Counted from the first letter of the stretch, positions 7,019 to 33,119 are shown. The stretch is DNA of 64,000 nucleotides from Promethearchaeota archaeon (GCA_048938895.1 JBHLLU010000007.1:1-64000), one strand, 5' to 3'. The notes: generated by a model not told the origin, from the letters alone. A program made the numbers and translations.

Positions 7019-8041
7019 TTATTCACCATTCCTCCAAGGAACTGTAATTTTATCCATTCTTTCTTTAGGTTGGACTATTGTTTTAGATATTTCATGCTTT
7101 CCCTCTGAAATATATCTTAAAATTCCGGTCCAGGCAATCATAGCACCGTTATCACCAGCATACTTTAAAGGAACTACTTCAAATCGAGCTTCATGCTCCT
7201 CACAGATATAATGAATCATCTCTTGCAATCTCTTATTCGCCGCTACTCCACCTGTAAGTAGGACTTCTTTTTTTTCCGTATGAGCTAGAGCTCGTTCAGT
7301 CACTTCAGTTAGCATAGCAAAAGCAGTTTCTTGTAATGAATTTGCCACATCATTAAGATTATATTTATCATTGAATTCTGGGGATTCTAATAAACGTTTT
7401 GCGGCTGAATAAAGTCCGGAAAAGGAGAGATCCATGCCTTTAACTACATAAGGTAAATGGAGATATTTTCTTGAATGTAAAGCTAATTTTTCAATCTTTG
7501 GACCTCCAGGATGGCTTAATCCTGCATCTCGAGCAAAGGAATCAATCATATTACCTACAGCTATATCAAGAGTTTCCCCAAATATTTGATATCTATTTGA
7601 TTCAAATGCACTGACAATAGTATTTCCCCCAGAAACATACAGAGTTAACGGATCTGCAATATTACATGTTAATCGTCCAATTTCTATATGGGCAATACAA
7701 TGATTTACAGCAATAAGAGGAGTTTCCAAAATCTGACTTAACATTCGAGCTACTAAAGCACCTATTTTTAATACGGGTCCCAAACCAGGACTCTTACTGA
7801 ATGCGATTAAATTTACTTGTTTAATAGATAGGTCTGCTTCTTTAAGAGCCTTATTAATAGCATTAGCAAAACAATTTAAGTGATGTTCCCGGACTAACAT
7901 AGGATGAAGTCCTCCTGTTTCTGGTATAAAAGTATCATTAACAAGAGAATGAACTCCTCCTTCAAAATCAACTATACCCACACCCCATGTATGCGCGGTG
8001 CTTTCAATACCTAAACAGTACTTTTTCATTAATTTCGCCAA
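7019..8041 (-). CDS. kae1: tRNA N6-threonylcarbamoyltransferase Kae1
   Basis: LGIESTAHT, PGLGP, NHCIAHIE, LYVSGGNT, GETLDIA, GGVAAN and DNGAMIA motifs. Confidence 0.97.
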   Translation of the reverse strand: MAKLMKKYCLGIESTAHTWGVGIVDFEGGVHSLVNDTFIPETGGLHPMLVREHHLNCFANAINKALKEADLSIKQVNLIAFSKSPGLGPVLKIGALVARMLSQILETPLIAVNHCIAHIEIGRLTCNIADPLTLYVSGGNTIVSAFESNRYQIFGETLDIAVGNMIDSFARDAGLSHPGGPKIEKLALHSRKYLHLPYVVKGMDLSFSGLYSAAKRLLESPEFNDKYNLNDVANSLQETAFAMLTEVTERALAHTEKKEVLLTGGVAANKRLQEMIHYICEEHEARFEVVPLKYAGDNGAMIAWTGILRYISEGKHEISKTIVQPKERMDKITVPWRNGE

Positions 8042-8136
8042 GATGTATAAAAGAACTCTAATAATTCTTAAGTTGAAGTACGAATTATCGAGAAAAATAG
8101 TAATAAAAGAGAACTTAGTAAAATTGATGGTTTGAT

Positions 8137-8352
8137 TTATCCATCAATGGATTTAACACGTTTTCGAGGAGTTCTTCTTGATGCCTTTCCTTTAGCTGTA
8201 CCTTTTCTTTTAAAGACTGCATAACCACATTTCCCACAACTCCATCGATCGTAATGATTCGCAAGAAAATAACTCGGACCACATTTAGGACACGATCTAT
8301 GAGTTCTCACTAACTTGTCTCCTTCGAGTTTATAATATTTTGAAGCGTCCAT
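8137..8352 (-). CDS. rps27ae: Ribosomal protein S27ae (eS31)
   Basis: YYK...CPKCG...FLANHYDRWSCGKCGY zinc ribbon; conserved operon position. Confidence 0.95.
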   Translation of the reverse strand: MDASKYYKLEGDKLVRTHRSCPKCGPSYFLANHYDRWSCGKCGYAVFKRKGTAKGKASRRTPRKRVKSIDG

Positions 8353-8369
8353 TTTACTATCCTATCTTT

Positions 8370-8726
8370 CTAATTATTTTCGAATAAATGCTTATAAGGT
8401 TCATTTCTTCTTTTAAGCTGATATATTTCCGTTCTCTTTTCCTTATCAAGATTACGAACTCTGATATAAAATGGTTCAAAAAATTGGAGCTCTTTGGCAT
8501 TATCATAGATATAGATTCTCCCTAGGGTATATGATGCCCCAAAATGGGTATCTAGTTTCTTAATAATGGTTAATTTCTCATCAGACCCTTGCATTGCAGC
8601 GATTTTCTTTTTTACATCTAATCGATTTGGAGTACTTGTCCCAAAATGATCAATTCTAATCGTGATTTCTTTTCTATCGATCAAAGGATTTTTTTTCTCT
8701 TCTATTATCTCGATCTTTAATGACAT
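8370..8726 (-). CDS. rps24e: Ribosomal protein S24e (eS24)
   Basis: EEKKNPLIDRKEI...TPNR.DV...T.FG.....G...IYD pattern. Confidence 0.95.
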   Translation of the reverse strand: MSLKIEIIEEKKNPLIDRKEITIRIDHFGTSTPNRLDVKKKIAAMQGSDEKLTIIKKLDTHFGASYTLGRIYIYDNAKELQFFEPFYIRVRNLDKEKRTEIYQLKRRNEPYKHLFENN

Positions 8727-8878
8727 GTTGAACCTTTTTTGCTTAATATGCTCAAATTCGTAAAATCATAATGGAATTCCATTTGATTTATAGAATTCAA
8801 AAGAATAGATAGAAATTAAAATTTTGCTTTTTATAAAAGTAATATCATGAATTTGCTATAAATAGTTGTTATTAGATT

Positions 8879-9466
8879 TTAGAATTTTTCCATTATTTCG
8901 ATGAACTTCTTTACTTTAGCTTGGATTTTAGCATCTACATCGATAATAACAATACCCTCCGGGATCATAAAATTTGAATCAGTTATAGGTGGTTGACCAT
9001 AAAATGCAAATTGCCCTACCTCCTTTTCAACGGGAATCTCTAAAATGAGAGGTAGCACTAGTAAATCTTCTTCACCTTCAGTTATCTTAATTAGTGTCTT
9101 TTTATTTGACTTAATCGATTCTCTGAAAAGTTTCCAACAACCTTTTTGAATAGTGCCTACTGGGTTTTGAAATTCATGAACTACATCGAAAAAATTCTCA
9201 AAATCGATATTTATTTGATTCCGTTGGGTTTTCTCATCAATTATACAAATTTTTATAAAGGATTTTAGAAAGCTATTAGCCATGAAATCTTTGGTCACAA
9301 TATCTCCTACAATATAAAAATTGATAGATTTTCCAGATTTTATATAATCTTTGAAAATATTTTCTACTTGAGTAATTGTATCCTCTCTAGTACCCGCTAT
9401 TAGAATATCAAGTGGCTCTGCATATGATTGTCTTTTTTTTTGAGGAATTCTTAAATTATAATCCAT
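8879..9466 (-). CDS. GTP-dependent dephospho-CoA kinase (DUF359 family)
   Basis: VGDIVT, IIDEKTQR, NPVGTI, GEEDLL and YGQP motifs; conserved position between spt4 and rps24e. Confidence 0.88.
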   Translation of the reverse strand: MDYNLRIPQKKRQSYAEPLDILIAGTREDTITQVENIFKDYIKSGKSINFYIVGDIVTKDFMANSFLKSFIKICIIDEKTQRNQINIDFENFFDVVHEFQNPVGTIQKGCWKLFRESIKSNKKTLIKITEGEEDLLVLPLILEIPVEKEVGQFAFYGQPPITDSNFMIPEGIVIIDVDAKIQAKVKKFIEIMEKF

Positions 9467-9558
9467 TTAAATCAAGAATAGTAAGGCAGAGTTCTATATA
9501 ATTTTTACTCTGAAATAAAGCTATGTAAGAATATAAAGAGTAAAATTTTTATATAAAT

Positions 9559-9747
9559 TTAACGTACTCTTAAAGCATATTTTCCAGGATAGTGAATTTT
9601 GAGATATTCTGCGAACTTAGACTCTTGAGGATTAATTATTATAACCTCTCCTGTAAAATCTTCGCTTAGAGTATGAGTTTTGCATTTTGGGCAAATAGTT
9701 TCGTTTTTAGTTATTAAATGACAATTTTTACATGCTTTTTCTTTCAA
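9559..9747 (-). CDS. spt4: Transcription elongation factor Spt4 (RpoE'')
   Basis: ACKNC...CPKC....LSEDFTG.VII..P..S..A....I..PGKYALRVR. Confidence 0.95.
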   Translation of the reverse strand: MKEKACKNCHLITKNETICPKCKTHTLSEDFTGEVIIINPQESKFAEYLKIHYPGKYALRVR

Positions 9748-22039: not shown

Positions 22040-22915
22040 ATAAAATTTGTTGAATTGAGTAGTTTTACTGAATCAGAAATATTAGAAACACACAATGAAG
22101 CTTTTTCTGATTATGAAGTACCTATGCAAATTTCTTTGGAGTCATTTAGAAACCTTAATCGTAGGAGAGGTGTTAGTTACAATTTATCTCTTGGTGCAGT
22201 TGATGGTGAGAAATTAGTTGGGTTTATCCTAAATGCCATTGATTATTGGGAAGATAAATTGACAGCTTATGATTGTGGAACGGGAGTTATACCCGATTAT
22301 CGTCAGAAGGGTGTTGGTAATCGAATTTTTAGTGAACTTCTACCTATATTACAAGCAGAAAATATTGAACAATATCTATTAGAAGTCATTCAATCTAATA
22401 CTGCTGCTTATAATTTATACAAAAAGAGAAATTTTCAGATTACTAGAAAATTTGACTGTTTAATGGCAGAAATAAAGGAGATTAAAAGTTGTCTCCATAA
22501 TAGTCGCAATAATCCATTAGCTGAAAAATATGATATTCGAGAAATAAATTCAATTGACTGGAATTATGTCATAAACTTTTGGGATTATCCTCCTTCATGG
22601 CAAAATTCGAATATGTCAGTTCAAAGGTTACCTAATAGTTTTAATTATCTTGGAGCATTTTCAGAAGAAAATCTAGTTGGTTACCTTGTCTATGAACCAA
22701 ATGGAGGTCTTACGCAAATAGCCGTAAGTAAAAATAAACGTAATCAAGGTATTGGCACAGAACTTATAAAATATCTAATAAAACAAAACTCTAATGTCGA
22801 CAAGTTAAGTATAATTAATGTTGATACCCGAGATAACTCCTTGTTAGGTTTTATAAAGTGCCTAGGATTCAATTCTTTTATCACCCAATTTGAAATGAAT
22901 TTAAAAATAAAGTAA
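22040..22915 (+). CDS. Tandem-domain GNAT N-acetyltransferase; probable ATA start
   Basis: AFSDY, GTGVIPDYRQKGVG, LEVIQ.N..A..LY and a second motif A (RNQGIG). AGGTGA SD is followed 6 nt later by an in-frame ATA. Confidence 0.88.
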   Translation: MKFVELSSFTESEILETHNEAFSDYEVPMQISLESFRNLNRRRGVSYNLSLGAVDGEKLVGFILNAIDYWEDKLTAYDCGTGVIPDYRQKGVGNRIFSELLPILQAENIEQYLLEVIQSNTAAYNLYKKRNFQITRKFDCLMAEIKEIKSCLHNSRNNPLAEKYDIREINSIDWNYVINFWDYPPSWQNSNMSVQRLPNSFNYLGAFSEENLVGYLVYEPNGGLTQIAVSKNKRNQGIGTELIKYLIKQNSNVDKLSIINVDTRDNSLLGFIKCLGFNSFITQFEMNLKIK

Positions 22916-22932
22916 AAAAATCAATATAATGA

Positions 22933-24306
22933 TTAATTTTTTTTGTTAACACTCTTTATTGCAATGAACGTGCTTATAGCAGCTACTAAAGTTATTATCA
23001 TAAGTGGATATCCGTTTATTTGAAATCCTCCCTCTTCAAACTTTAAGTTGACATTACCTTGAAAACTTCCTTCAACTGCGGCAATGCCTCCATCAAACAA
23101 CATAATATCAGGAGTACCATTGTCATTAATATCGGGAACTATGTACATCTCTTCAGCCCCATGGTAATGTTCTCCACCAATAGAAATTAATTGAGAGCCG
23201 CTATTACCTGAAAAAACTTCGTGAGGGTAAAAGTCACCGAAAATTCCATAATCGTCATATCCATCAGCATTCACATCTCCACAAAAGGTTACTCCATGCA
23301 TATAATTTAAAAGATTTTGAGCTGTGTGATTGCGAATAAATGATCCGTCTAATCCTGAATAAATACCAACTTTATATCCTGAAGAGTATAATCCACCAAA
23401 GTCACCCCATCCATCATTATTTATATCCCCCACATAATGTAGAGAATGTAGATTGATTGGATTTGACCAAATAATATTGTTATTGGATGTATTTATTAAG
23501 GTAACTCCTGCTCCTGTTCTTGCTATGATTGCATCTGAATTAAAACCAGCTCCATTTGGAATGATATCAAGCCCCCATCCAACTCCTGCTCTATTCCATA
23601 TTTCAGAACCACTAATAGTTAAAACTTGTAAAAAACCTGAAATTGTTAAAATATGTTGAGTTGAATTAATTGTTATCGATCTTATTCCGTTTGAAACTTC
23701 TGCTAGTTCAAACTCCCATATCACAGTCGCATTTACACTTTCAACACATTGAACAATAGCTCTAGGGGTGTAATCAATACCTGTAATGACATAATCGTTT
23801 ACACCATTTCCATTTACATCATGCTCTAAACCAAATCCACAATCAATAACAGGCCAAAAGAACCCAGCTCTTCTATTTTCTTCATCAGGACTGTCTAAGG
23901 CAACACCATCTTCCCCATTAAGTAAATAATGATTATTCCAAACAGCTTCAAACACTAATTGTTCAGTAATATTGTCCCCATCTGCATCAATACCAGAATC
24001 ACAGCCCCAAAGAACTTCATGGTGTAGCCCCCATTGATCCCAGATTTCTTTAGGACCACCATGCGCAGGATTTACATCAAGAGCTTTTGTATATATTGCT
24101 CCACAGATACCTATTTCCCGCCATCCATCACCATTAATATCATCCATAACCCAAGCACCCCAAATTCTTCCCTGGTTTTCTTTATAGGCAAAAATTAACC
24201 CTGAATTTGATGAAGCTTTACAATTTGGTGCGTATGATATTAGATATGATGTAAGCACAAATATAGAAAAGAAAATCATTAGAGATTGTTTAGGTTTTAA
24301 TCTCAT
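22933..24306 (-). CDS. Secreted FG-GAP/integrin-like beta-propeller protein with C-terminal anchor
   Basis: Signal peptide; Ca-binding repeats DINGDG, DADGDN, DVNGNG, GDINNDG, GDVNADG, DINDNG; INGY-TM-KK tail. Confidence 0.82.
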   Translation of the reverse strand: MRLKPKQSLMIFFSIFVLTSYLISYAPNCKASSNSGLIFAYKENQGRIWGAWVMDDINGDGWREIGICGAIYTKALDVNPAHGGPKEIWDQWGLHHEVLWGCDSGIDADGDNITEQLVFEAVWNNHYLLNGEDGVALDSPDEENRRAGFFWPVIDCGFGLEHDVNGNGVNDYVITGIDYTPRAIVQCVESVNATVIWEFELAEVSNGIRSITINSTQHILTISGFLQVLTISGSEIWNRAGVGWGLDIIPNGAGFNSDAIIARTGAGVTLINTSNNNIIWSNPINLHSLHYVGDINNDGWGDFGGLYSSGYKVGIYSGLDGSFIRNHTAQNLLNYMHGVTFCGDVNADGYDDYGIFGDFYPHEVFSGNSGSQLISIGGEHYHGAEEMYIVPDINDNGTPDIMLFDGGIAAVEGSFQGNVNLKFEEGGFQINGYPLMIITLVAAISTFIAIKSVNKKN

Positions 24307-24529: not shown

Positions 24530-26509
24530 TTACCCTATCTCAATATCCATTTTTTTGCGTTCAGCCATTAAATCATCCACGACTGACGGATCTGCTAATG
24601 TCGTTACATTACCAATTTCTGTTCCCGCAGCAATAGCTTTTAAGATCCTTCTCATTATCTTACCACTTCTTGTCTTTGGTAGAGCATCTGCAAATTGTAT
24701 GACATCTGGTTGAAAAACAGGACCTATTTCTTGTCTTACATGCATTCGAATTTCATTGGCTAATTTGGCTGATTTCTCAACTCCTTGCATTAATGTTACA
24801 TATGCATAAATTGCCTGTCCTTTTATCTTGTGAGGAAAAGGTGCAACTGCAGCTTCTGCAACACTTGGATGACTTACTAGAGCCGATTCAACTTCCATAG
24901 TTCCTATGCGGTGACCAGACACTTTGATTACATCATCTAATCTTCCAAGAATCCAATAGTAACCATCTTCATCGCGTCGTGCCCCATCACCAGTATAATA
25001 ATAACCAGGATATCTCTCAAGGTAAGTAGATTTAAATCTTTCAGTATCACCCCAGACATCTCTTAACATACCAGGCCATGGTTGTCCCATAGCAAAGTAT
25101 CCACCTTCATTTGGTTCAGTCACTTCATCACCTTCTAGATCAAATATAATCGGTCTAATCCCTAAGAAAGGCATACAACATGATCCTGGTTTAGTCGGTG
25201 TTGCTGTAGATATGGGTGTCATGATGAATCCTCCAGTTTCAGTTTGCCAGTAAGTATCAACGATTGGACAATGACTTTTCCCAATAACTCTATGATACCA
25301 CGTCCAAGCTTCTGGATTAATAGGTTCCCCCACAGTTCCCAAAACTTTTATAGAACTTATATCATGCTTTTCCACAGGTTCTTCCCCATATCTCATTAGG
25401 GCTCTAATAGCAGTTGGTGCAGTATAAAAGTGTGTAACTTTATGACGTTCTACGATATCCCAGAACCTATCAACGTCAGGATAAGTAGGAACTCCTTCAA
25501 ACATTAAACTCGTTGCACCATTTGCAAGTGGTCCATAAACTATGTAAGAATGACCTGTAATCCATCCTATATCCGCAGTACAATACCATATATCCTCTTC
25601 ATGATAATTAAAAACAACCCTATGGGTAAATGATGTATACAAAATGTATCCTGCAGTAGTATGTTTTACACCTTTAGGTTTGCCTGTTGTTCCACTTGTA
25701 TATAAAATAAATAATGTATCTTCAGAATCCATTTTTTCAGATTCACATTCTTCACTCATTCCTTCAATGAAGTCATGATACCAGATATCTTTATCTGTAT
25801 GAGGAACATCCCTACCTGAACGTTGAACAACAATAACCTTCTCAATAGTAGGAACATCATCAATAATCTGAACTACATCTGCCATTTTAGGATAATATTT
25901 TCCTGCTCGTAACGTTTCATCACTAGTAAATAGTAGTCGAGAATCGGAATCTTCAATTCTATCTTTTACAGCTTCTTTTGAAAAACCACCAAATACAATT
26001 GAATGAATCACACCAATTCTAGCACATGCTAGCATAATGATAGCTAACTCCGGAATCATTGGAAGCCATATCGTTACTCGATCTCCCTTCTTCAAACCCA
26101 ATTTCTTCATACCATTTGCGACATTATTAACTTCTTTTAATAGCTCATTGTAAGTAAACTTTCTTACCTGTCCTGGTTCATCCGCTTCCCATATTAATGC
26201 TATTCTTTCACCGTTTCCCGCATTGACATGTCTATCTAAACAGTTATAGGCAACATTTAGTTTTCCTCCTACAAACCAATTCCCTGGAAATAAATCTGTT
26301 TTTTCCCATACTTTCTCATAAGGTTCAAACCAATCTAACGATTTTGCTTGTTCCCCCCAGAATCCTTCCATATCCTCAATAGATTGTTTGTAGAGTTTTT
26401 TGTATTCTTCTAATGACATACCAGTTTTAGCAAAATCTAAATTAAGGGCGACAGGATCAAATATACGATTCTCAGTAAGGATACTCTCCATTCGTTCTTC
26501 TTTCGACAT
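24530..26509 (-). CDS. acs: AMP-forming acetyl-CoA synthetase
   Basis: YTSGTTGKPKG, ADIGWITGHSY, VGEPINPEAW, DTYWQTETG and PKTRSGKIMRR motifs. Confidence 0.97.
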   Translation of the reverse strand: MSKEERMESILTENRIFDPVALNLDFAKTGMSLEEYKKLYKQSIEDMEGFWGEQAKSLDWFEPYEKVWEKTDLFPGNWFVGGKLNVAYNCLDRHVNAGNGERIALIWEADEPGQVRKFTYNELLKEVNNVANGMKKLGLKKGDRVTIWLPMIPELAIIMLACARIGVIHSIVFGGFSKEAVKDRIEDSDSRLLFTSDETLRAGKYYPKMADVVQIIDDVPTIEKVIVVQRSGRDVPHTDKDIWYHDFIEGMSEECESEKMDSEDTLFILYTSGTTGKPKGVKHTTAGYILYTSFTHRVVFNYHEEDIWYCTADIGWITGHSYIVYGPLANGATSLMFEGVPTYPDVDRFWDIVERHKVTHFYTAPTAIRALMRYGEEPVEKHDISSIKVLGTVGEPINPEAWTWYHRVIGKSHCPIVDTYWQTETGGFIMTPISTATPTKPGSCCMPFLGIRPIIFDLEGDEVTEPNEGGYFAMGQPWPGMLRDVWGDTERFKSTYLERYPGYYYTGDGARRDEDGYYWILGRLDDVIKVSGHRIGTMEVESALVSHPSVAEAAVAPFPHKIKGQAIYAYVTLMQGVEKSAKLANEIRMHVRQEIGPVFQPDVIQFADALPKTRSGKIMRRILKAIAAGTEIGNVTTLADPSVVDDLMAERKKMDIEIG

Positions 26510-26849
26510 TCTAATCTACACTTTTGAATTTCTTTTATAATTTGATTAATGAATTTAATTTTTTATATTTTATAGAATAGTACTAATTCAAGAAAGAATT
26601 GAATGGAATTTAAACATTTTATCTATAAATCATTTAAGATAATTTTCGAAGGAATCAGTTTGATAATTATATTGAGTAAAACATAAATTAAAAATAAATT
26701 TTAATAGGTGTTTAATTGGATTCAATTGTATAAAATTGAATAAGTAAACAAATAATAAATTAAGACAAAATCAATCTAATCGAACAATAAATTTAAGCTA
26801 ATAAATAATATTATAATTAATTCCAATTTTTTCATACCCCATAGGTAAG

Positions 26850-27206
26850 GTGATAAATATACCTAAATGCAAATTTTGTGGTAAAGAAGTTGCTAAAAAT
26901 GATTTTGTAGATGATTTTGAAATATGTATAAATTGCGTTATGACAAATACAATCAATTATTCTTTAAAATATGACCTTCGTATGTGTTTATTCTTTTTAG
27001 GAATATTGTTTTTCATTGTATCTTTGTTTTCCGTGATAACTATTATCCCTTTTGTATTATCAGATTTTAAGCAATATTTTGTTTTTGCCTTACCTCCTTT
27101 AATTATGAGTATCATCAGTGGTAGTTTAGTTCTCAGTTCATTACTTGTTTCTAAACAAAAATATATAAAGGAAAGAAAAAAGCCAGAAAACACTTTATCA
27201 TTATAA
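26850..27206 (+). CDS. Small Zn-finger plus 2-TM membrane protein (possible ATA start at 26859)
   Basis: CKFC...CINC followed by two hydrophobic helices. Confidence 0.7.
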   Translation: MINIPKCKFCGKEVAKNDFVDDFEICINCVMTNTINYSLKYDLRMCLFFLGILFFIVSLFSVITIIPFVLSDFKQYFVFALPPLIMSIISGSLVLSSLLVSKQKYIKERKKPENTLSL

Positions 27207-27268
27207 AATAAAGTTATATAAAGGCAATAATAATCTAAGTTAGTATAATATGTTAGAAAGGAATAAAT

Positions 27269-29161
27269 ATGTCGAATTCAGAATGGCGAGAGAAGTGGAA
27301 AGATAAAGAAATCAGTGCTGAAGATGCTGTTAAGAAAATTATACCAGGTAATAGAGTTTTTATTGACTCAGGATGTTCAGAACCACAATTATTAACATCA
27401 GAATTAATAAAACAATCAGAAAAGCTAATTGATACAGAAATCCTTCATTTTTTAACAATTGGGCCTGAAAAGTATTTCGAGGATAAAGCTGAAGATCTCT
27501 TTAGACATAACGCATTTTTTATTGGAAAAACTCTTCGTGAGGAAATTAATAAAGGTCAAGCTGACTATACTCCCATTTATGCCAGTGAAATCCCCTCGTT
27601 AATTACCACAGGACGTAAACACATTGATATTGCACTTATACAAGTTAGCCCTCCAGATCCTTATGGATTTTGTTCCTTAGGGATAAATGTGGATATTGCC
27701 AAACCTATAGCTCAATCATCATTTATGACTATTGTTGAAATAAATCCGCAAATGCCTCGTACCTTAGGAAATAGTTTTATTCACATGAAAGAAATAGACT
27801 TTTTTGTATATAATGATGTGCCTTTATTGGAATTTCAATTTGATGAACCAGATGATATTGCTGAAAGAATAGGTCAAAATTTAGCTAATTTAGTAGAAAA
27901 TAAATCAACCATCCATGTAGGATTTGGGGATCTACCAAATACCTGCTTAAAATACTTATTTGATAAAAATGATCTAGGTATGCATTCACACTATATTACT
28001 GATAATATAATCCCTCTTATTGAAGAAGGAGTGTTGACTTGTAGAAAGAAAAATTTCCATCCTGAAAAGATAATTACAAGTTTTGCGTTAGGGACTAAAA
28101 AATTGTATGATTTTGTACACAATAATCCATACATCGAATTTTTTCCTTCGGATTATGTATGCAATCCACGACATATTGGAATGAATAAAAAATTGGTTTC
28201 AATAAATTCAGCGAGACAAATTGACCTAACAGGACAGGTAAATGCAGCTACAGAAGGCTATCAATTTTATTCTGGATTAGGAGAAACTATTGATTTTATG
28301 AGGGGTGCTGCATTTTCAAAAGGAGGAAAACCAATTATAATTATCCCTTCAACATCTCGGGACGGTAAAAAATCTAGAATTGTTCCTCATTTAGATGAGG
28401 GTGCAGGAATAATGTTATCTCGTGGAGATGTACATTATGTTGTAACTGAATGGGGGGTTGCCTATCTTCATGGTAAAACGATCCGAGAAAGAGTGCTTGA
28501 ATTGATATGTATTGCTCATCCAGACTTCCGACAATCTCTATTGGAAGAAGCAAAGAAGTTAAACTATGTGTATTCAGATCAAATTCTTCCCTGTGATGAA
28601 GAAGGACGAATATGTATATATCCTTCACAATATGAAACGATCTATACCGCATATAACAGCGAAAAGATTAGAATTAGACCCGTCAAAACTACAGACGAAT
28701 CATTACTTAAAGAATTATATTATTCTTTAAATGAGAGAGATAGATATTTAAGATTTTTCGGTATGAAAAAAGAGTTTACACATTCTAAAACCCAAGACGA
28801 GGTTAATATCGATTATGACAAAATATTCTCGATTGGTGCATTTGTAGGGGAAATAGGTAAAGAAGAAATGGTGGGAAACGCAACATATTATCTGAATCCT
28901 AAATTGAATACAGCGGAATATAGCTTTCTAGTCAGAGAGGGATATCGCGGGAAAGGGGTTGGGACTTTTCTTTACCGACATCTTATTATTATAGCAAAGG
29001 AAAAAGGGATAAAAGGATTTTATGGCAACATTCACATTCAAAACAAGAGTACTGTTCGTATTATACAACAAGGGGGTTATACCAAAATCACTCCTCCGGA
29101 AGCGGGAGAAAAAGAGCTATTTTATGAAGTCTTTTTTGATAAAGAAGATTCTATAGATTAG
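27269..29161 (+). CDS. Acetyl-CoA hydrolase/4-hydroxybutyrate CoA-transferase-like domain fused to a Pat-type GNAT
   Basis: DIALIQVSPPD..G..SLG, EINPQMPRT.G, DLTGQV, S.GGKPI and VVTEWG motifs; C-terminal IRIRPV..DE.......SL...RYLRFF ... YRGKGVG. Confidence 0.9.
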   Translation: MSNSEWREKWKDKEISAEDAVKKIIPGNRVFIDSGCSEPQLLTSELIKQSEKLIDTEILHFLTIGPEKYFEDKAEDLFRHNAFFIGKTLREEINKGQADYTPIYASEIPSLITTGRKHIDIALIQVSPPDPYGFCSLGINVDIAKPIAQSSFMTIVEINPQMPRTLGNSFIHMKEIDFFVYNDVPLLEFQFDEPDDIAERIGQNLANLVENKSTIHVGFGDLPNTCLKYLFDKNDLGMHSHYITDNIIPLIEEGVLTCRKKNFHPEKIITSFALGTKKLYDFVHNNPYIEFFPSDYVCNPRHIGMNKKLVSINSARQIDLTGQVNAATEGYQFYSGLGETIDFMRGAAFSKGGKPIIIIPSTSRDGKKSRIVPHLDEGAGIMLSRGDVHYVVTEWGVAYLHGKTIRERVLELICIAHPDFRQSLLEEAKKLNYVYSDQILPCDEEGRICIYPSQYETIYTAYNSEKIRIRPVKTTDESLLKELYYSLNERDRYLRFFGMKKEFTHSKTQDEVNIDYDKIFSIGAFVGEIGKEEMVGNATYYLNPKLNTAEYSFLVREGYRGKGVGTFLYRHLIIIAKEKGIKGFYGNIHIQNKSTVRIIQQGGYTKITPPEAGEKELFYEVFFDKEDSID

Positions 29162-29210: not shown

Positions 29211-30011
29211 ATGAAGTTTAAATATACAGATTATCATCTGCATACAGCAAATTGGAGTGTCGATGTCGGAAAAGATGGTCCTACATTCGAGGACTATATT
29301 AAAGTTGCAGAAAAAAATGAAATTAATATCTGTTTTCTTGAACACTATGAGCTATACTATATTGAGAAAGATAAAACAAATCCTTTTTATAATGGAAATA
29401 TTGATAATTATTTAGAAGAACTTGATGAACTGAAAGAAACCTATGATTTCATCTATAGTGGACTTGAAATCGAGTATTATGAAGATAGAGAAATTAAGCT
29501 TCTAGAATTAATGGATGATTACGGAAGAGACTTAGATTTCATAGGAGGAACTTTACACGAATGGATTTTTGGCTATCCTATTACTTCTAAAGAAAAATTA
29601 TTGGATTTTCTTGCTAAAAAAAAGATGAGAGATATTATAGATGAATATTTTCTACTATCCAAAAAGATGATCAATTCGAAAATCTTTAAGAATATTTGCC
29701 ATCTTGATACTATTTTTCGCTATATTAATGAAAATGACATAAAACCTGAAGAAGATTGTGATGTTTCTGAAGATAGAGTCTTAGAATTGGGACGTCTCTG
29801 TATAAAGAATAAAATCTCTATTGAATTCAATTTATCTGGTAGAAAATTTCCCATTGGACGACCCTTTCCTTCAAAATCAGTGATATCCACGTTAAAAAAA
29901 GAAGGAGGATCATTTTTTGTAGGATCAGATTCTCATAAATTAGATTATTTTGAAAGTCAAATCTCAAAAGTAAAAGAAGCATATAACTATATAAATTCAA
30001 TATCATATTAA
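29211..30011 (+). CDS. PHP-family phosphatase (HisK/HisJ histidinol-phosphatase-like)
   Basis: DYHLHT, EH, GLEIEY, GTLH, CHLD, IEFN and GSDSH motifs. Confidence 0.85.
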   Translation: MKFKYTDYHLHTANWSVDVGKDGPTFEDYIKVAEKNEINICFLEHYELYYIEKDKTNPFYNGNIDNYLEELDELKETYDFIYSGLEIEYYEDREIKLLELMDDYGRDLDFIGGTLHEWIFGYPITSKEKLLDFLAKKKMRDIIDEYFLLSKKMINSKIFKNICHLDTIFRYINENDIKPEEDCDVSEDRVLELGRLCIKNKISIEFNLSGRKFPIGRPFPSKSVISTLKKEGGSFFVGSDSHKLDYFESQISKVKEAYNYINSISY

Positions 30012-30028
30012 ATTACAGCTATTATATT

Positions 30029-30760
30029 ATGGAATTCAAAGATTTTCAAAATAAAATTAATAAATGGGACCAGAAAATAATTCTAAAATACAATGGTATA
30101 GGTGGAAAACCTTTAACTTATATCTTAAAAGTTCTATCTTTTTTTGGGAGGGAAACAGTCTGGATTTTTTTAATTGCTTTTTATTTATTTATATGGTATG
30201 ATCCCTTCTTACTTTCACATTTAAGCGCTATTTTTTTAATCGGTTTAATTATGGTCGTTATTATTAAAAAATCAGTAAATAGATTACGACCATTTGAGAA
30301 GTTAGGTACCGAAAAAATAAAAGTATTGGAAAAAAGACCTAAATCAAAGAGTTTTCCATCTTGGCATGCATATAACATTGTCGCATATGGTTTACTAATA
30401 GGATTATTTTTTCTGAGATCACCTTTAATAATAATACTAATGCAAGGTTTTGCAATTATTGTGTCATTTAGTAGAATACAATTAGGAGTACATTATCCTA
30501 GTGATGTTATATTTGGTTATATTCTGGGAATAATTGGGTTTTTATTCTCAACGTTCATCCTTGCGCCATTTTTCCAAGATATTATTGAATATTTTGAAGG
30601 TTTTGCTCTCCACCGTATTGAATATAGACAAATTAACTCACTGGTTTTTGAAAATATCTGGTATTTAATATTATGGCTATTAATATGTGTTCTTATTATA
30701 ATTTCTGCCACATATAGACATTTTAAAGATGGAAAAAGAGAAAAAAAGTTAAAGATCTAA
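30029..30760 (+). CDS. PAP2 family membrane phosphatase
   Basis: K..V.R.RP, SFPS.H and SRIQLGVHYPSD motifs. Confidence 0.9.
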   Translation: MEFKDFQNKINKWDQKIILKYNGIGGKPLTYILKVLSFFGRETVWIFLIAFYLFIWYDPFLLSHLSAIFLIGLIMVVIIKKSVNRLRPFEKLGTEKIKVLEKRPKSKSFPSWHAYNIVAYGLLIGLFFLRSPLIIILMQGFAIIVSFSRIQLGVHYPSDVIFGYILGIIGFLFSTFILAPFFQDIIEYFEGFALHRIEYRQINSLVFENIWYLILWLLICVLIIISATYRHFKDGKREKKLKI

Positions 30761-31999
30761 GCTCTTCCTTTTGCTGAATAAGTCTTTTAGTTCATTTAGC
30801 ACCGTTAATCTTGAATTTTCCCCCGCTCTACTACTACTAAAAGAAGGATTAGAAATTTCGAGTGGTTGTCCCCCTTGGGCTGCTTGAAATGCACCTGATT
30901 CTATTGCACGAAGACGAGTATCAAGATCATTTAGCTGTGTAGAAATGCTCTCAGACAAGCGAATTACGGCATTTAATGTCTCTTCTAATGTTTTCCCTAA
31001 ACCTTCTACTTTTCTTACCGTTGGATCAGTAAGAGAATATGTAGAACTCATCAAATTTTTAATATATTTTGCAAATTGAGGTTCGTGGGAAATCAAGGAA
31101 TAAATAGAAGTTAAATATATTTCAATATCAAAATCATAATTCTTGTTTTTTAGGAGTTCTCTCATATTATCCTTTAAGAGTTCAATATTTAGGAGTATTT
31201 TTGGGTCACTTTTTAAATCCGGATCATACTTATGAAAAAATATTAAAACATAGGGATTTTCTTCTAACATTACTAATGAATCCAATATATTGTCAAGATA
31301 ATTCATCGCCTCCTCAAATCTTTCAGAATCTTGAATATCTACTACATAGATTAATAAGTCTAATTGAACAAAATATTGCTCGGGATTATTAAGATACCTT
31401 TCTCTATACTCTTCTTGTCCTCCGAGATCCCATATAAATAAAGATAAAGTGGAACTACCAAACTTCATTCTGACTACTCCCTTTGTCGGATGAGTACCAA
31501 TCATATCACTAATTCCTAAACGTCCTCCAAATTTAGATAAAAGTGATGTTTTGCCTGCAGCATCTAATCCCGCTACTAAAACTTTCTGAGCTTGCCCAGT
31601 TTCAATAGCTTCCCTTTCTTCTGTAATGCTTTCAATGAGGACACTTATAGTAACTGCTTTTTTTAGCTTATTTTCTAAGGTAGGATATTTTTTTTTAAGT
31701 TCCTCGATTTTTTTCTTTAGATTTTCTGTTAATTCAATTGATTCTTCAGTTTCCTCTAATGGTGTTAGATTTTGAAAAGGATCTTCTTTGTCTAAATTTA
31801 GTAATTCATTAATTTTGGAAATTTCAAAGAGATCTTTTATAATGGTTGATTCTTCTTTATCTATAAACTTATAGGATTGAATAGGCAACTTTAAAATATC
31901 GTCGATCTTTTCTAGCTTCTCTATTTTTACCGATTTATCATCTAAAAATTTGGTAATGACCTTTATAATTTCTGAAGTTTCTGAGGACATAGTGACCAT
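30749..31999 (-). CDS. Multidomain Rag/Arf-like small GTPase
   Basis: GLDAAGKTS, PTKG, WDLGGQ, HKYD and TSI motifs; ~135-aa N-terminal domain and C-terminal coiled coil. Confidence 0.88.
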   Translation of the reverse strand: MVTMSSETSEIIKVITKFLDDKSVKIEKLEKIDDILKLPIQSYKFIDKEESTIIKDLFEISKINELLNLDKEDPFQNLTPLEETEESIELTENLKKKIEELKKKYPTLENKLKKAVTISVLIESITEEREAIETGQAQKVLVAGLDAAGKTSLLSKFGGRLGISDMIGTHPTKGVVRMKFGSSTLSLFIWDLGGQEEYRERYLNNPEQYFVQLDLLIYVVDIQDSERFEEAMNYLDNILDSLVMLEENPYVLIFFHKYDPDLKSDPKILLNIELLKDNMRELLKNKNYDFDIEIYLTSIYSLISHEPQFAKYIKNLMSSTYSLTDPTVRKVEGLGKTLEETLNAVIRLSESISTQLNDLDTRLRAIESGAFQAAQGGQPLEISNPSFSSSRAGENSRLTVLNELKDLFSKRKSLDL

Positions 32000-32195
32000 T
32001 GATTCTTTTAATATTAATAGAATGATTTTGCTTTTATTATTATTTATTAAACTTTTATGATACTAGTTAAAAAGGCTTCGATATAAATTTTCACAACTTA
32101 ATTTTAAATAGATTAAACTTAAATATTTATTAGAGGATGTATTTTATACTAAAAATGAAAATTTCCATTACTAACCTTAACTATCACAAGTAATT

Positions 32196-33119
32196 ATGCC
32201 CTCTTATTTTGAAGACAATGAATTTTTTGAAGATAATGGGGAGGAAGGCCCACATTGTTGCGATAGTCCTAAAATTAGCGAAGAAGACGGATTTTATGTT
32301 TGTTTAAACTGTGGATTTGTGTACTCCAGGATACTTGATGATAGTCCTCGAAGAGCATTTACTCAGGAGGAAATTCAGAAACGGAAGAGTAGTGAACGAG
32401 TATATAGTCCAATTGGTCCAAGAACAATCATCCGAGGATCAAGAGACGCCAGGGGCACGTTACTGAGTCCGAAATATAAATCAAAGTTTAATAGATTAGC
32501 TAAAATTCATAGATCTTTGACAACTAGTTATGAGAGAAACTTGTGGATAGCATTACCTAACTTACAGCGTTTACAAAAAAGATTGAGTATACCAGATGCC
32601 GTAGCTGATGATGCACTTAGAATTTATACTCAAACAGTCAAAAAGAAATTGACGATGGGAAGGAGCATCGATACTCTATTATCTGCTTCGATTTTTGCAG
32701 CTTTAAAGGTTCATGGAATACCGAGAACCGCTGAAGAGATAACAAAAGTTGCTCAAATTCCTAAAAAGAAAGTAATAAAGAGTTATCGATTAATTTTGAT
32801 GGAAGTTCTTCCAAAACTTGGAATGAAAGTACAACATTTTTCAGCGGATAGATATGTGGATAAATTCAATGAAGAACTTAAACTTTCAATGCAGTGCCGG
32901 AACATAGCAGTAAAATTAATCGAAAAGGCAAGAGAGAGTGGTTTTAATTCAGATGGTAAAGACCCAAAAGGAATTGCCGCAGCCTCAATCTATATAGCAT
33001 CAAAAATTTGTAATGAAAATAGAACTCAAAAGGAAATTAGTCAATTAGCTAAAGTTACTGAAGTAACTCTCCGTATGCGAGTTAAAGACCTACAAAATTA
33101 TGCAAATATTGTTGATTGA
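32196..33119 (+). CDS. tfb: Transcription initiation factor B (TFB) paralogue
   Basis: Zn ribbon (CCD...VCLNCG), two cyclin folds (GRS, PRT..EI, GKDPKGIAAASIYIA) and RTQKEI...A.VTEVTLR.R HTH. Confidence 0.93.
   Translation: MPSYFEDNEFFEDNGEEGPHCCDSPKISEEDGFYVCLNCGFVYSRILDDSPRRAFTQEEIQKRKSSERVYSPIGPRTIIRGSRDARGTLLSPKYKSKFNRLAKIHRSLTTSYERNLWIALPNLQRLQKRLSIPDAVADDALRIYTQTVKKKLTMGRSIDTLLSASIFAALKVHGIPRTAEEITKVAQIPKKKVIKSYRLILMEVLPKLGMKVQHFSADRYVDKFNEELKLSMQCRNIAVKLIEKARESGFNSDGKDPKGIAAASIYIASKICNENRTQKEISQLAKVTEVTLRMRVKDLQNYANIVD

Follow-up and report, generated by a model that had tools for sequence, protein, structure and literature searches.

A gene located head to head with acs in a Promethearchaeota archaeon encodes a protein in which a CoA-transferase-like domain is joined by a linker to a GNAT domain carrying the residues of Pat-type acetyltransferases. 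On balance, and with some reserve, we read this protein as a Pat-like lysine acetyltransferase acting on the acetyl-CoA synthetase Acs, with the CoA-transferase-like domain serving as its regulatory module. In the proposed mechanism, the C-terminal GNAT domain would use acetyl-CoA to acetylate Lys617 in the PKTRSGK motif of the Acs encoded head to head with it, which would stop acetate activation at high acetyl-CoA levels, and the mark would be removed by one of the sirtuins or HDAC-type deacetylases of the genome. The N-terminal domain would no longer transfer CoA; it would stand in for the ACD-like domain that regulates Pat/PatZ, binding CoA/acyl-CoA (or another ligand), probably mediating dimerisation, and controlling the GNAT.

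Structure of the locus

The window analysed is a stretch of 64,000 nucleotides (GCA_048938895.1, JBHLLU010000007.1:1-64000), within which the following features were defined.

24530–26509, minus strand: acs, AMP-forming acetyl-CoA synthetase, 659 aa (ORF call)
24659–24679, minus strand: PKTRSGK motif of Acs (translation check)
24659–24661, minus strand: codon of Acs Lys617, predicted acetylation site within PKTRSGK
26510–27268, no strand: divergent intergenic region, both promoters expected inside, widened by the small ORF (ORF list)
26850–27206, plus strand: small ORF, 118 aa, N-terminal CxxC...CxxC followed by hydrophobic stretches
27269–29161, plus strand: fusion gene, 630 aa, CoA-transferase-like domain, linker and Pat-type GNAT (ORF call, Pfam, NCBIfam, phmmer)
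27281–28564, plus strand: CoA-transferase-like domain, residues ~5–432, 4-hydroxybutyrate CoA-transferase fold
27914–27931, plus strand: altered gate loop HVGFGD, canonical (L/I)QxGIG (alignment; coordinates checked)
27974–27994, plus strand: LGMHSHY, with His241 (codon 27989–27991) at the catalytic Glu position (alignment; coordinates checked)
28271–28297, plus strand: SGLGETIDF, altered SGxGGQxDF loop (oxyanion-hole Gly, carboxamide) (alignment; coordinates checked)
28664–29098, plus strand: Pat-type GNAT domain, residues ~466–610, including the IRP...RYLRFF stretch (PF00583, PF13302)
28916–28918, plus strand: Glu550, predicted GNAT catalytic residue (aligns with PatZ E809 and SlPatA E123)
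28946–28963, plus strand: RGKGVG, residues 560–565, acetyl-CoA pyrophosphate-binding motif (translation)

The Acs protein matched NF001208 (acetate--CoA ligase) with 982 bits against a cut-off of 657, and TIGR02188 with 953 bits, also above the cut-off. No other true Acs is encoded in the genome, where the closest AMP-forming paralogue shares 31% identity. The original prediction, that the fusion gene is divergent from an acs retaining PKTRSGK with one small gene between them, described this layout correctly. The small ORF had no family in a Pfam search and only a weak, below-cut-off match in NCBIfam; tblastn revealed a match at the same place in 9 of 80 related loci (34–59% identity), and the ORF is probably a variable insert outside the system. 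In the fusion protein, Pfam assigned PF02550 to residues 17–185, PF13336 to residues 275–428, and the GNAT family PF00583 to residues 513–597. The AlphaFold2 model of the fusion had a mean pLDDT of 92.5 and a pTM of 0.90.

The CoA-transferase-like domain

The fold of the N-terminal domain is that of the family: PF02550 and PF13336 both scored above cut-off, phmmer matched the solved 4-hydroxybutyrate CoA-transferases 9vag, 3eh7, 3d3u, and 2oas with E-values of 1e-117 to 1e-98 (down to 1e-96 with 3gk7 included), and Foldseek gave target-normalised TM-scores of 0.93–0.95 for 3gk7 and 2oas. Class I CoA-transferases are defined by a nucleophile Glu, a gate loop, and a GGQ loop (PMC3180442, PMC4876117), and the original prediction held that all three are altered here, with LGMHSHY replacing the catalytic Glu motif, GFGD replacing GIG, and SGLGETIDF replacing SGxGGQxDF. 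The coordinates proved exact, and the loss of the Glu was confirmed by alignment to 9vag, 3eh7, 3d3u, 2oas, and AarC. In the phmmer alignments to the four former enzymes, dlgmhshyitd lies over dlgvhtemisd, which places His241 at the position of the HTE Glu; vgfgdlpn is aligned over mgigaipd, and ysglgetidf over ysgfggqldf, of solved enzymes. The AarC match starts at residue 241 of the query and position 294 of the chain, Glu294 being the AarC nucleophile (PMC4876117). Gly388 of AarC is the external oxyanion hole (PMC4876117), and the loop Gly of SGLGETIDF would correspond to it residue by residue. In RipA, the loop equivalent to the altered gate loop, G-V227-G, lies next to the catalytic Glu and acts as the gate of the acyl-CoA cleft (PMC3180442). 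Judging from these alignments, the canonical catalytic set of CoA-transferases has been lost.

The altered site is conserved among the 73 orthologues. His241, His239, Ser240, and His216 (the latter in HVGFGD) are each present in all of them, residue 339 is always acidic (47 Glu, 26 Asp), giving G(E/D)T for GGQ, and residue 340 is Thr in 71. The gate loop has changed from GIG to GFG or GNG, the residue varying among F, N, and Y, while residue 258 is Cys except in eight orthologues, which have Ser. Altered residues kept in 73 of 73 orthologues reflect neither chance nor sequencing error. The mean top-residue frequency is 0.88–0.90 in the CoA-transferase half versus 0.87 in the GNAT half, and both halves are under strong purifying selection. 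Its conservation, equal to that of the GNAT half, and the confident AlphaFold2 model indicate that the N-terminal domain is not decaying. The term "degenerate" originally applied to it is too weak for the site, which appears to be rebuilt and is invariant in the 73 orthologues, so that it may have acquired another ligand, a metal, or a different catalytic role. In the proposed mechanism, the domain would still bind a CoA species and would regulate the GNAT.

The GNAT domain and its predicted substrate

GNAT enzymes bind the pyrophosphate of acetyl-CoA through an R/Q-x-x-G-x-G/A motif, represented in the fusion by RGKGVG. Glu550 and R560 are present in all 73 orthologues, and G563 and G565 in 71 each. 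The two residues aligned with Glu550, E809 of PatZ and E123 of SlPatA, are the catalytic Glu of these enzymes (PMC12184503). The best solved relatives of the domain are PatZ (9it0/9isq) and SlPatA (4nxy/4u5y), with E-values of about 1e-14. The alignment to residues 700–864 of E. coli PatZ (9it0, E-value 1.7e-14) includes IRP...RYLRFF, and the longer Pat-specific pre-GNAT sequence IRP...RY(L/Y)RFF...EFTH...IDYD is present and aligned to PatZ 700–864 and SlPatA 20–187. The Pat/PatZ-type assignment made in the original prediction is therefore upheld by the alignments to 9it0 and 4nxy, in which E550 is kept; the Pat model NF058543 matched residues 463–601 below its cut-off.

All 13 Acs sequences in the alignment have an unchanged PKTRSGK motif, whose Lys corresponds to the active-site residue acetylated in the bacterial enzymes (K609 of S. 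enterica Acs; PMC12184503). When the full fusion was modelled in complex with the C-terminal domain of Acs, the ipSAE was 0.64 in three runs, and the best of three controls gave 0.00; the runs had at least 87% of contacts in common, with a partner pLDDT of at least 83. Of 157 solved complexes, 116 attain this ipSAE mark, as do 2 of 215 mismatched pairs; these counts are only roughly valid here because our own alignments were used for the complex model. In this model, Lys617 touches fusion residues 495–498, 552, and 587, and E550 touches Acs residues 613–615. All confident interface residues are located in the GNAT (490–618), and nothing in the model suggests that the N-terminal domain shapes the substrate pocket. 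Because a complex of the SlPatA GNAT with SeAcs has already been solved (4U5Y; PMC12184503), this result may simply reproduce that structure. Acs is the predicted substrate of the fusion; the PX4GK motif is found in 15 of the 24 AMP-forming family members of the genome, so Acs need not be the sole or main target.

Linkage to acs

In 65 of 68 informative related loci, acs lies divergently upstream of the fusion gene. The start-to-start gap is at most 1 kb in 53 of the 68, most often about 250–310 bp, and the linkage persists even where as much as 5.8 kb has been inserted between acs and the fusion gene. The anticipated synteny with acs is thus conserved among these loci, but its reach is narrow, the altered fusion copy and its acs linkage being confined to one Asgard family. 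There, synteny extends over the entire block and takes in unrelated genes (PHP-like, PAP2, GTPase, and TFB), so the linkage is, taken alone, weak evidence and could be a product of inheritance, not of selection. Stronger evidence than the linkage in the family of the window comes from a distant Asgard family: another, catalytically intact fusion subclade is located there within 3 kb of acs, in divergent orientation, in 51 of 66 genomes. Fusions are located away from acs in four of five complete or near-complete genomes of other families (three of the same order and one of another family).

Paralogues and the wider fusion family

A paralogue in the same genome (contig C99, 17370–19292) is 50% identical to the fusion, has the same three-domain architecture and length, and keeps MGIGI, HSE, and GIGGQVD, with intact Glu and GGQ; it is not adjacent to acs. 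It belongs to the same Asgard radiation of the tree, and intact-motif fusions also occur in other Asgard families. The presence of an intact fusion in the same genome implies that the fusion preceded the loss of the catalytic motifs. In the sister lineage P0121, Phe occupies the Glu position, yet the loop has an acidic residue (GDS). Across the wider fusion family this position carries many residues, including D, Q, F, V, C, P, and G. At least 18 changes of the Glu state among 90 fusion rows, versus 3 among 61 stand-alone rows of one tree, suggest that the catalytic constraint was relaxed after fusion to the GNAT.

In at least 120 bacterial protein clusters, the same CoA-transferase–GNAT fusion is extended by a C-terminal PF00850 (AcuC-type) deacetylase domain; in 108 of 120, Asp occupies the Glu position, and the GGQ loop is gone. 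By Rosetta stone reasoning, these proteins favour the lysine acetyltransferase reading. Deacetylase candidates in the archaeal genome comprise three SIR2 matches and four to five PF00850 matches, none of them in the same locus and all off the contig of the window (C65).

Alternative interpretations

The protein could instead acetylate lysines of targets other than Acs or of a far wider range, for example further acyl-CoA synthetases or a global target set as known for PatZ; the acs adjacency would then be a matter of inherited block synteny, with no particular functional significance. The PHP-like, PAP2, GTPase, and TFB neighbours being as conserved at the locus as acs, the frequency of PX4GK among the AMP-forming paralogues, and the fusions remote from acs in other families all suit this reading, which we nevertheless consider rather unlikely: it leaves aside the acs-linked second subclade in the distant family and the persistence of linkage across insertions, an acetyltransferase gene divergent from acs is known, and tested, in B. 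subtilis (PMC11255334), and the complex model, with the proviso that 4U5Y is already solved, places Lys617 in the GNAT site. Still less is to be said for an enzyme of small-molecule metabolism, in which the GNAT would N-acylate an amine or amino acid with acyl-CoA supplied or positioned by the CoA-transferase-like domain and no protein would be modified. In its favour, the paralogues with intact motifs may be genuine CoA-transferases that feed a GNAT, amidohydrolases of small molecules are also found among PF00850 domains, and an MFS transporter and a second GNAT occur in the cluster of the distant family f31. However, the nearest solved relatives of the GNAT are Pat protein acetyltransferases, matched along with their specific N-terminal extension, the transferase machinery is gone from the copy in the window, and the C-terminal domain of Acs is predicted to dock with its Lys in the GNAT site; this possibility appears very improbable.

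The N-terminal domain could also have been neofunctionalised, with His216, His239, His241, Glu/Asp339, and Thr340 forming a new catalytic or metal centre, for example an acyl-CoA thioesterase with a His-carboxylate dyad or a site of three His and one carboxylate; this would make the protein bifunctional, or a reader of some signal that is not acyl-CoA. The three His and the acidic residue, and nearly so the Thr (71 of 73), are invariant in the manner of catalytic residues, P0121 likewise has an acidic loop in spite of its Phe, and by homology to RipA (PMC3180442) and AarC (PMC4876117) the three altered elements line the active-site cleft. On the other hand, the alternation of Glu and Asp at residue 339 and of F, N, and Y in the gate is loose for a precise catalytic geometry, Cys258 is replaced by Ser in 8 of 73 orthologues, and the diversity at the Glu position across the fusions fits loss better than one new chemistry, so that we regard this alternative as unlikely. 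An Acs-directed lysine acetyltransferase remains the probable function of the fusion.

Comparison with known systems

Solved enzymes of the AbfT/RipA family (AbfT 3gk7, 2oas, 3eh7, and RipA 3qli) share the fold of the N-terminal domain, with TM-scores of 0.93–0.95 and 33–40% identity over about 430 residues, and many of their cleft residues are kept, e.g., DLTGQ, F343, and R345. The fusion differs from them in having His for the nucleophile Glu, altered GGQ and gate loops, and an attached GNAT, and it scored 253 bits against TIGR03948, for which the cut-off is 675. Its C99 paralogue, in contrast, retains all three motifs and lies away from acs.

The divergent layout resembles that of B. subtilis, where acsA is transcribed divergently from acuABC (PMC11255334), acs in both cases facing the gene of its inactivating acetyltransferase, which is a predicted one here. 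AcuC is a classical Zn-dependent deacetylase of the PF00850 type, the domain found C-terminally in the bacterial relatives of the fusion. Unlike the fusion, AcuA consists of a small GNAT alone and lacks a regulatory domain, and unlike acuABC, the window has no deacetylase gene.

The closest parallel in the GNAT subtype is provided by Pat of S. enterica, PatZ/YfiQ of E. coli, and PatA of S. lividans, with E-values of about 1e-14 over 160 residues including the pre-GNAT extension, an equivalent catalytic Glu (E550 = E809 = E123), and a conserved acetyl-CoA motif. In these proteins too, the bulk of the sequence is a large non-catalytic domain derived from an enzyme, and the residue expected to be acetylated is the Lys in the active site of Acs. 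However, the regulatory part of Pat has the fold of NDP-forming acyl-CoA synthetases (ACD), while that of the fusion is a class I CoA-transferase fold; Pfam and NCBIfam found PF02550 and PF13336, and no ACD-type family, in its N-terminal 430 residues. The classification quoted in PMC12184503 lists five types of Pat, with ACD-like, cAMP-, ACT-, or NADP-binding domains or none, and the CoA-transferase type is missing from these five. The fusion would thus represent a further regulatory-domain type, and its host, unlike those of Pat, is an archaeon.

Organisation of the acs-fusion locus

The fusion gene and acs are arranged divergently in the window, where the ORF list gives the following features:

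24530-26509, minus strand: acs, 659 aa
26850-27206, plus strand: small ORF, 118 aa
27269-29161, plus strand: fusion ORF, 630 aa

The coordinates of the original prediction each proved to be exact on checking, and the small gene that it placed between acs and the fusion is present in the ORF list. The fusion protein comprises PF02550 (residues 17-185), PF13336 (275-428), and the GNAT domain PF00583 (513-597). Its NCBIfam score was 253 bits, against a cut-off of 675 for true butyryl-CoA:acetate/succinate CoA-transferases, and the NCBIfam model of mycobacterial Pat matched residues 463-601 below its cut-off. By its NCBIfam score (982 bits with a cut-off of 657), the acs product is a genuine acetate--CoA ligase, and it is the sole one encoded in its genome, the closest AMP-forming paralogue being 31% identical.

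The small ORF was considered as a conserved third component and rejected, being found at just 9 of 80 related loci. A 286-aa protein encoded at 22055-22915 (plus strand) consists of two tandem GNAT domains (PF00583 twice, E 1.7e-23); its gene is located about 1.6 kb past the 3' end of acs, with a gene for a probable secreted protein (22933-24306, minus strand, 457 aa) in between. Within the flanks covered, just 2 of the 80 related loci had a tblastn match to this tandem-GNAT protein. Downstream of the fusion, at 29211-33119, there are a PHP-like ORF without a Pfam match, a PAP2 phosphatase gene, a GTPase-like gene (416 aa, minus strand), and a TFB-like gene; this order is kept at nearly all 80 related loci, with TFB being 79-97% identical.

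Alteration of the CoA-transferase active site

A phmmer search against all PDB chains matched the fusion to 4-hydroxybutyrate CoA-transferases with E-values from 1e-117 to 1e-96. The sequence DLGMHSHYITD was aligned over DLG(V/I)HTEM(I/F)SD of the solved enzymes, VGFGDLPN over MGIGAIPD, and YSGLGETIDF over YSG(F/T/V)GGQ(L/V/M)DF, while a weaker match to AarC begins at query residue 241 opposite chain position 294, the AarC nucleophile. The proposed loss of the catalytic Glu is thus borne out, His241 occupying its position, and the GIG and SGxGGQxDF motifs are altered as predicted, to GFGD and SGLGETIDF. Family I CoA-transferases are defined in part by a Glu in the active site (Glu249 in RipA), and the adjacent G-V227-G loop of RipA gates the acyl-CoA cleft, according to PMC3180442. 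PMC4876117 describes an external oxyanion hole provided by the backbone amide, strictly conserved, of a Gly in a loop (Gly388 in AarC), and a conserved carboxamide that buttresses the catalytic Glu. Together, the alignments and these papers indicate that three elements are changed in the fusion, namely the nucleophile, gate loop, and Gly-Gly-Gln loop; the residue-by-residue matching of the loop positions is our inference.

A word-indexed protein search with the fusion listed at least 120 clusters at 75-94% identity, all with the identical three Pfam domains; those with a named source all belonged to Asgard lineages. Conservation was analysed for 73 sequences, namely 72 full-length orthologues from 80 genomic loci and the window's copy. 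His216, His239, Ser240, and His241 were each found in 73 of 73, residue 339 was Glu in 47 and Asp in 26, Thr340 was present in 71, and the predicted GNAT catalytic residue, Glu550, was kept in all 73. The mean frequency of the top residue in this set was 0.90 and 0.88 in the two CoA-transferase lobes, on a par with 0.87 in the GNAT domain, and therefore selection on the N-terminal domain is as strong as on the GNAT. The AlphaFold2 model of the fusion (74-row alignment) had a mean pLDDT of 92.5 and a pTM of 0.90, with Foldseek TM-scores (target-normalised) of 0.93-0.95 to 3gk7 and 2oas. A sequencing error or a pseudogene as the source of the altered motifs was rejected in view of the open frame, the confident model, and the invariance of the changes in 73 orthologues. 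Judging by this conservation, the N-terminal domain is rebuilt rather than decaying.

Origin of the altered copy and the wider protein family

A second fusion is encoded in the same genome on contig C99 (17370-19292, minus strand, 640 aa); it is 50% identical, retains MGIGI, HSE, and GIGGQVD, and has no acs gene nearby. Among 400 scanned genomes of the phylum, 263 had a match to the fusion, but matches of at least 71% identity were confined to the family of the window's genome (f1), the sister families of the order reaching about 50%. Some match was found in 126 of 134 f1 genomes. A tree of the CoA-transferase domain was built with FastTree from 155 rows; on it, the His-bearing clade and its Phe-bearing sister P0121, a representative from the wide search, form a supported group (99) nested in an Asgard radiation whose remaining members retain Glu and GGQ, so the fusion predates the loss. 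The catalytic set was then lost in one duplicate, in the ancestor of the family f1. A search for the P0121-type lineage in five genomes yielded a single match, 62% identical but cut short, on a contig of 1.5 kb. In 4 of 10 genomes of the genus g11 (G167, G168, G169, and G175), the fusion match contains one in-frame TAA; the open frame is still 614-644 aa, and the TAA probably sits just 5' of the true start.

A search of 1.84 billion representatives revealed 1,697 proteins at E <=1e-30, and the Glu position was surveyed in the best 150, which include 72 full fusions and 61 stand-alone proteins. Among these 72 fusions, 42 have Glu and 30 another residue (D in 14, Q in 3, F, G, and P in 2 each, and V, C, I, S, H, A, and T in 1 each), while the 61 stand-alone proteins have Glu in 44 and Gly in 12, the latter forming one clade. 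Parsimony on a tree rebuilt without the trait columns gave at least 18 changes between Glu and non-Glu among 90 fusion rows versus 3 among 61 stand-alone rows, counts that are rough since many nodes are weakly supported and both directions are counted. Even so, this difference indicates that catalysis is often dispensable after joining to a GNAT. The Gly-bearing (HSG) clade comprises stand-alone proteins of about 425 aa from the same CoA-transferase family, with GGQ mostly kept (P0226, P0229, P0233, P0234, P0237, P0246, P0250, P0257, P0258, P0260, P0263, and P0268), and may represent a further non-canonical subfamily.

Some members of the wider family carry additional domains. In P0157 and P0173, two long representatives, a PF00850 histone-deacetylase domain is located C-terminal to the GNAT. 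P0124 and P0126 (about 960 aa) have an N-terminal extension of about 340 aa with 4Fe-4S dicluster domains, and their Glu position is taken by Val or Gln, suggesting a variant linked to redox state. With P0157 as the query, at least 120 clusters were listed, each about 1,000 aa long and with both PF13336 and PF00850; most also have PF00583. Eleven of those listed bear an organism name, 10 bacterial (Deltaproteobacteria, Myxococcota, Aminicenantes, Planctomycetes, or just 'bacterium') and 1 Thermoplasmatota. Asp occupies the Glu position in 108 of 120 listed clusters and the GGQ loop is gone; 107 of 120 retain the Glu of the GNAT. That a single chain combines a writer with an eraser of the AcuC type argues that this GNAT family acts in reversible acetylation. 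A scan of metagenome contigs with P0157 found 12 loci, all matching the CoA-transferase part alone at 29-42% identity.

Linkage of the fusion to acs

Linkage could be judged at 68 of the 80 loci, those with enough upstream DNA, all from one family. An acs gene is divergent upstream of the fusion at 65 of them (within 1 kb at 53, at 1-3 kb at 10, and further away at 2), and was not seen upstream at the other 3. At these loci, conservation of the PHP-like, PAP2, GTPase, and TFB genes further downstream equals that of acs, and the loci come from one family; the linkage within f1 taken alone is block synteny. Locus L030 (DATKTW010000124.1), labelled as a Nanopelagicaceae bacterium, carries a gene 86% identical to that of the window and the same downstream Asgard block, and is probably a mis-binned contig.

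Synteny with acs, which had been suggested as a check, holds in part outside this family. Other families were represented by five complete or near-complete genomes, in 4 of which (three of f3, one of f16) the fusions are far from acs. The fifth, G319, belongs to the distant family f31; its two tandem fusions, whose motifs are intact, are divergent from acs and from genes for an MFS transporter and a small GNAT, with the following features between the fusions and acs:

L091 (G319:C1:1795000-1810000), 7695-9688: MFS transporter (435 aa) and separate GNAT (174 aa)

This cluster hints at carboxylate uptake and activation. The fusion was found in 66 of 71 f31 genomes; acs lies on the same contig within 3 kb, always divergent, in 51 of the 66, both genes are present but unlinked in 8 (on different contigs in 7, in 3 of which the fusion is within about 650 bp of a contig end), and an acs match is absent in 7. 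Since the f31 copies are placed apart from the window's clade on the CoA-transferase domain tree, the association with acs is either very old or has arisen twice. This supports a functional tie, possibly a metabolic one for the intact copies.

The Pat-type GNAT and its predicted substrate

When residues 439-630 were searched alone, they matched E. coli PatZ (9it0/9isq, residues 700-864, E 1.7e-14) and the S. lividans PatA GNAT (4nxy/4u5y), and then Sulfolobus Pat. Glu550 was aligned over PatZ E809 and SlPatA E123, described as the key catalytic residue in PMC12184503. The assignment of a Pat/PatZ-type GNAT is thus upheld, both by the nearest solved relatives and by the matching catalytic Glu.

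The full fusion was folded with the C-terminal domain of Acs (residues 516-659). The ipSAE was 0.64 in 3 of 3 runs and 0.00 in the best of three controls; of the solved complexes, 116 of 157 attain this ipSAE mark, as do 2 of 215 mismatched pairs, a calibration that is only rough here as our own alignments were used. At least 87% of contacts were common to the runs, and the partner pLDDT was at least 83. In the complex model, Acs Lys617, the Lys of the PKTRSGK motif, contacts fusion residues 495-498, 552, and 587, Glu550 contacts Acs residues 613-615, and the confident interface residues belong to the GNAT alone. Since a similar complex, the SlPatA GNAT with S. enterica Acs (4U5Y), has already been solved, the score shows likeness and may stem from that known structure. 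Acs Lys617 is the most likely target of the fusion. The PX4GK motif occurs in 15 of 24 AMP-forming family members of the same genome, so other substrates are possible.

Three SIR2 and 4-5 PF00850 matches were found in the same genome, none on the contig of the window. One sirtuin gene (C147:518-1048, plus strand) adjoins a gene for an AMP-forming acyl-CoA synthetase (C147:1249-2796, minus strand), a paralogue with a PVTSVGK motif, and the two may form a second acylation-control pair.

Proposed function and comparison with known systems

Asgard archaea are the closest prokaryotic relatives of eukaryotes, and Lokiarchaeia are thought to live by fermentation and acetate exchange. Reversible Acs acetylation is a textbook example of metabolic control through lysine acetylation in bacteria and is poorly known in archaea. 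Very probably, the fusion is a lysine acetyltransferase of the Pat-like kind whose N-terminal domain derives from a CoA-transferase but does not act as one. The proposed acetylation switch is partly supported, by the Pat-like GNAT, the lost transferase set, and the linkage to acs, less the share of that linkage that is block synteny in f1. The N-terminal domain may sense acyl-CoA, bind another ligand, or carry out a new activity, and the invariant His/His/His/acid set is compatible with a rebuilt site. Should the proposed switch hold, the family would be a clean case in which an enzyme fold has been taken up as a sensor, with catalysis lost many times independently; it would also point to a large bacterial family with writer and eraser on a single chain, and would offer a testable handle on the gating of acetate activation in Lokiarchaeia.

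A broader reading, which we regard as rather unlikely, is that CoA-transferase-GNAT proteins, with or without an AcuC-type deacetylase or Fe-S domain, represent an old and widespread sixth lysine-acetyltransferase architecture of archaea and bacteria, with the CoA-transferase fold providing the metabolic input, and that in the Lokiarchaeial family the input site has been rebuilt as a three-His/carboxylate centre that reads a non-acyl-CoA signal (metal, redox state, or carboxylate) or hydrolyses acyl-CoA. If so, Acs would be under the control of an input unknown in any described Pat system.

A full-text literature search, with most subscription journals beyond reach, found neither a CoA-transferase-GNAT fusion nor Acs acetylation in Asgard archaea. 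The AcsA enzyme of B. subtilis is a target of both AcuA and AcuC, and its gene is transcribed divergently from acuABC (PMC11255334). The Pat classification in PMC12184503 distinguishes five types: the regulatory domains are ACD-like in types I and II and cAMP-, ACT-, or NADP-binding in type III, and are missing from types IV and V. A CoA-transferase-type regulatory domain, as in the fusion, is absent from this scheme, and if the proposed switch holds it would be a new type of regulatory domain in this classification.
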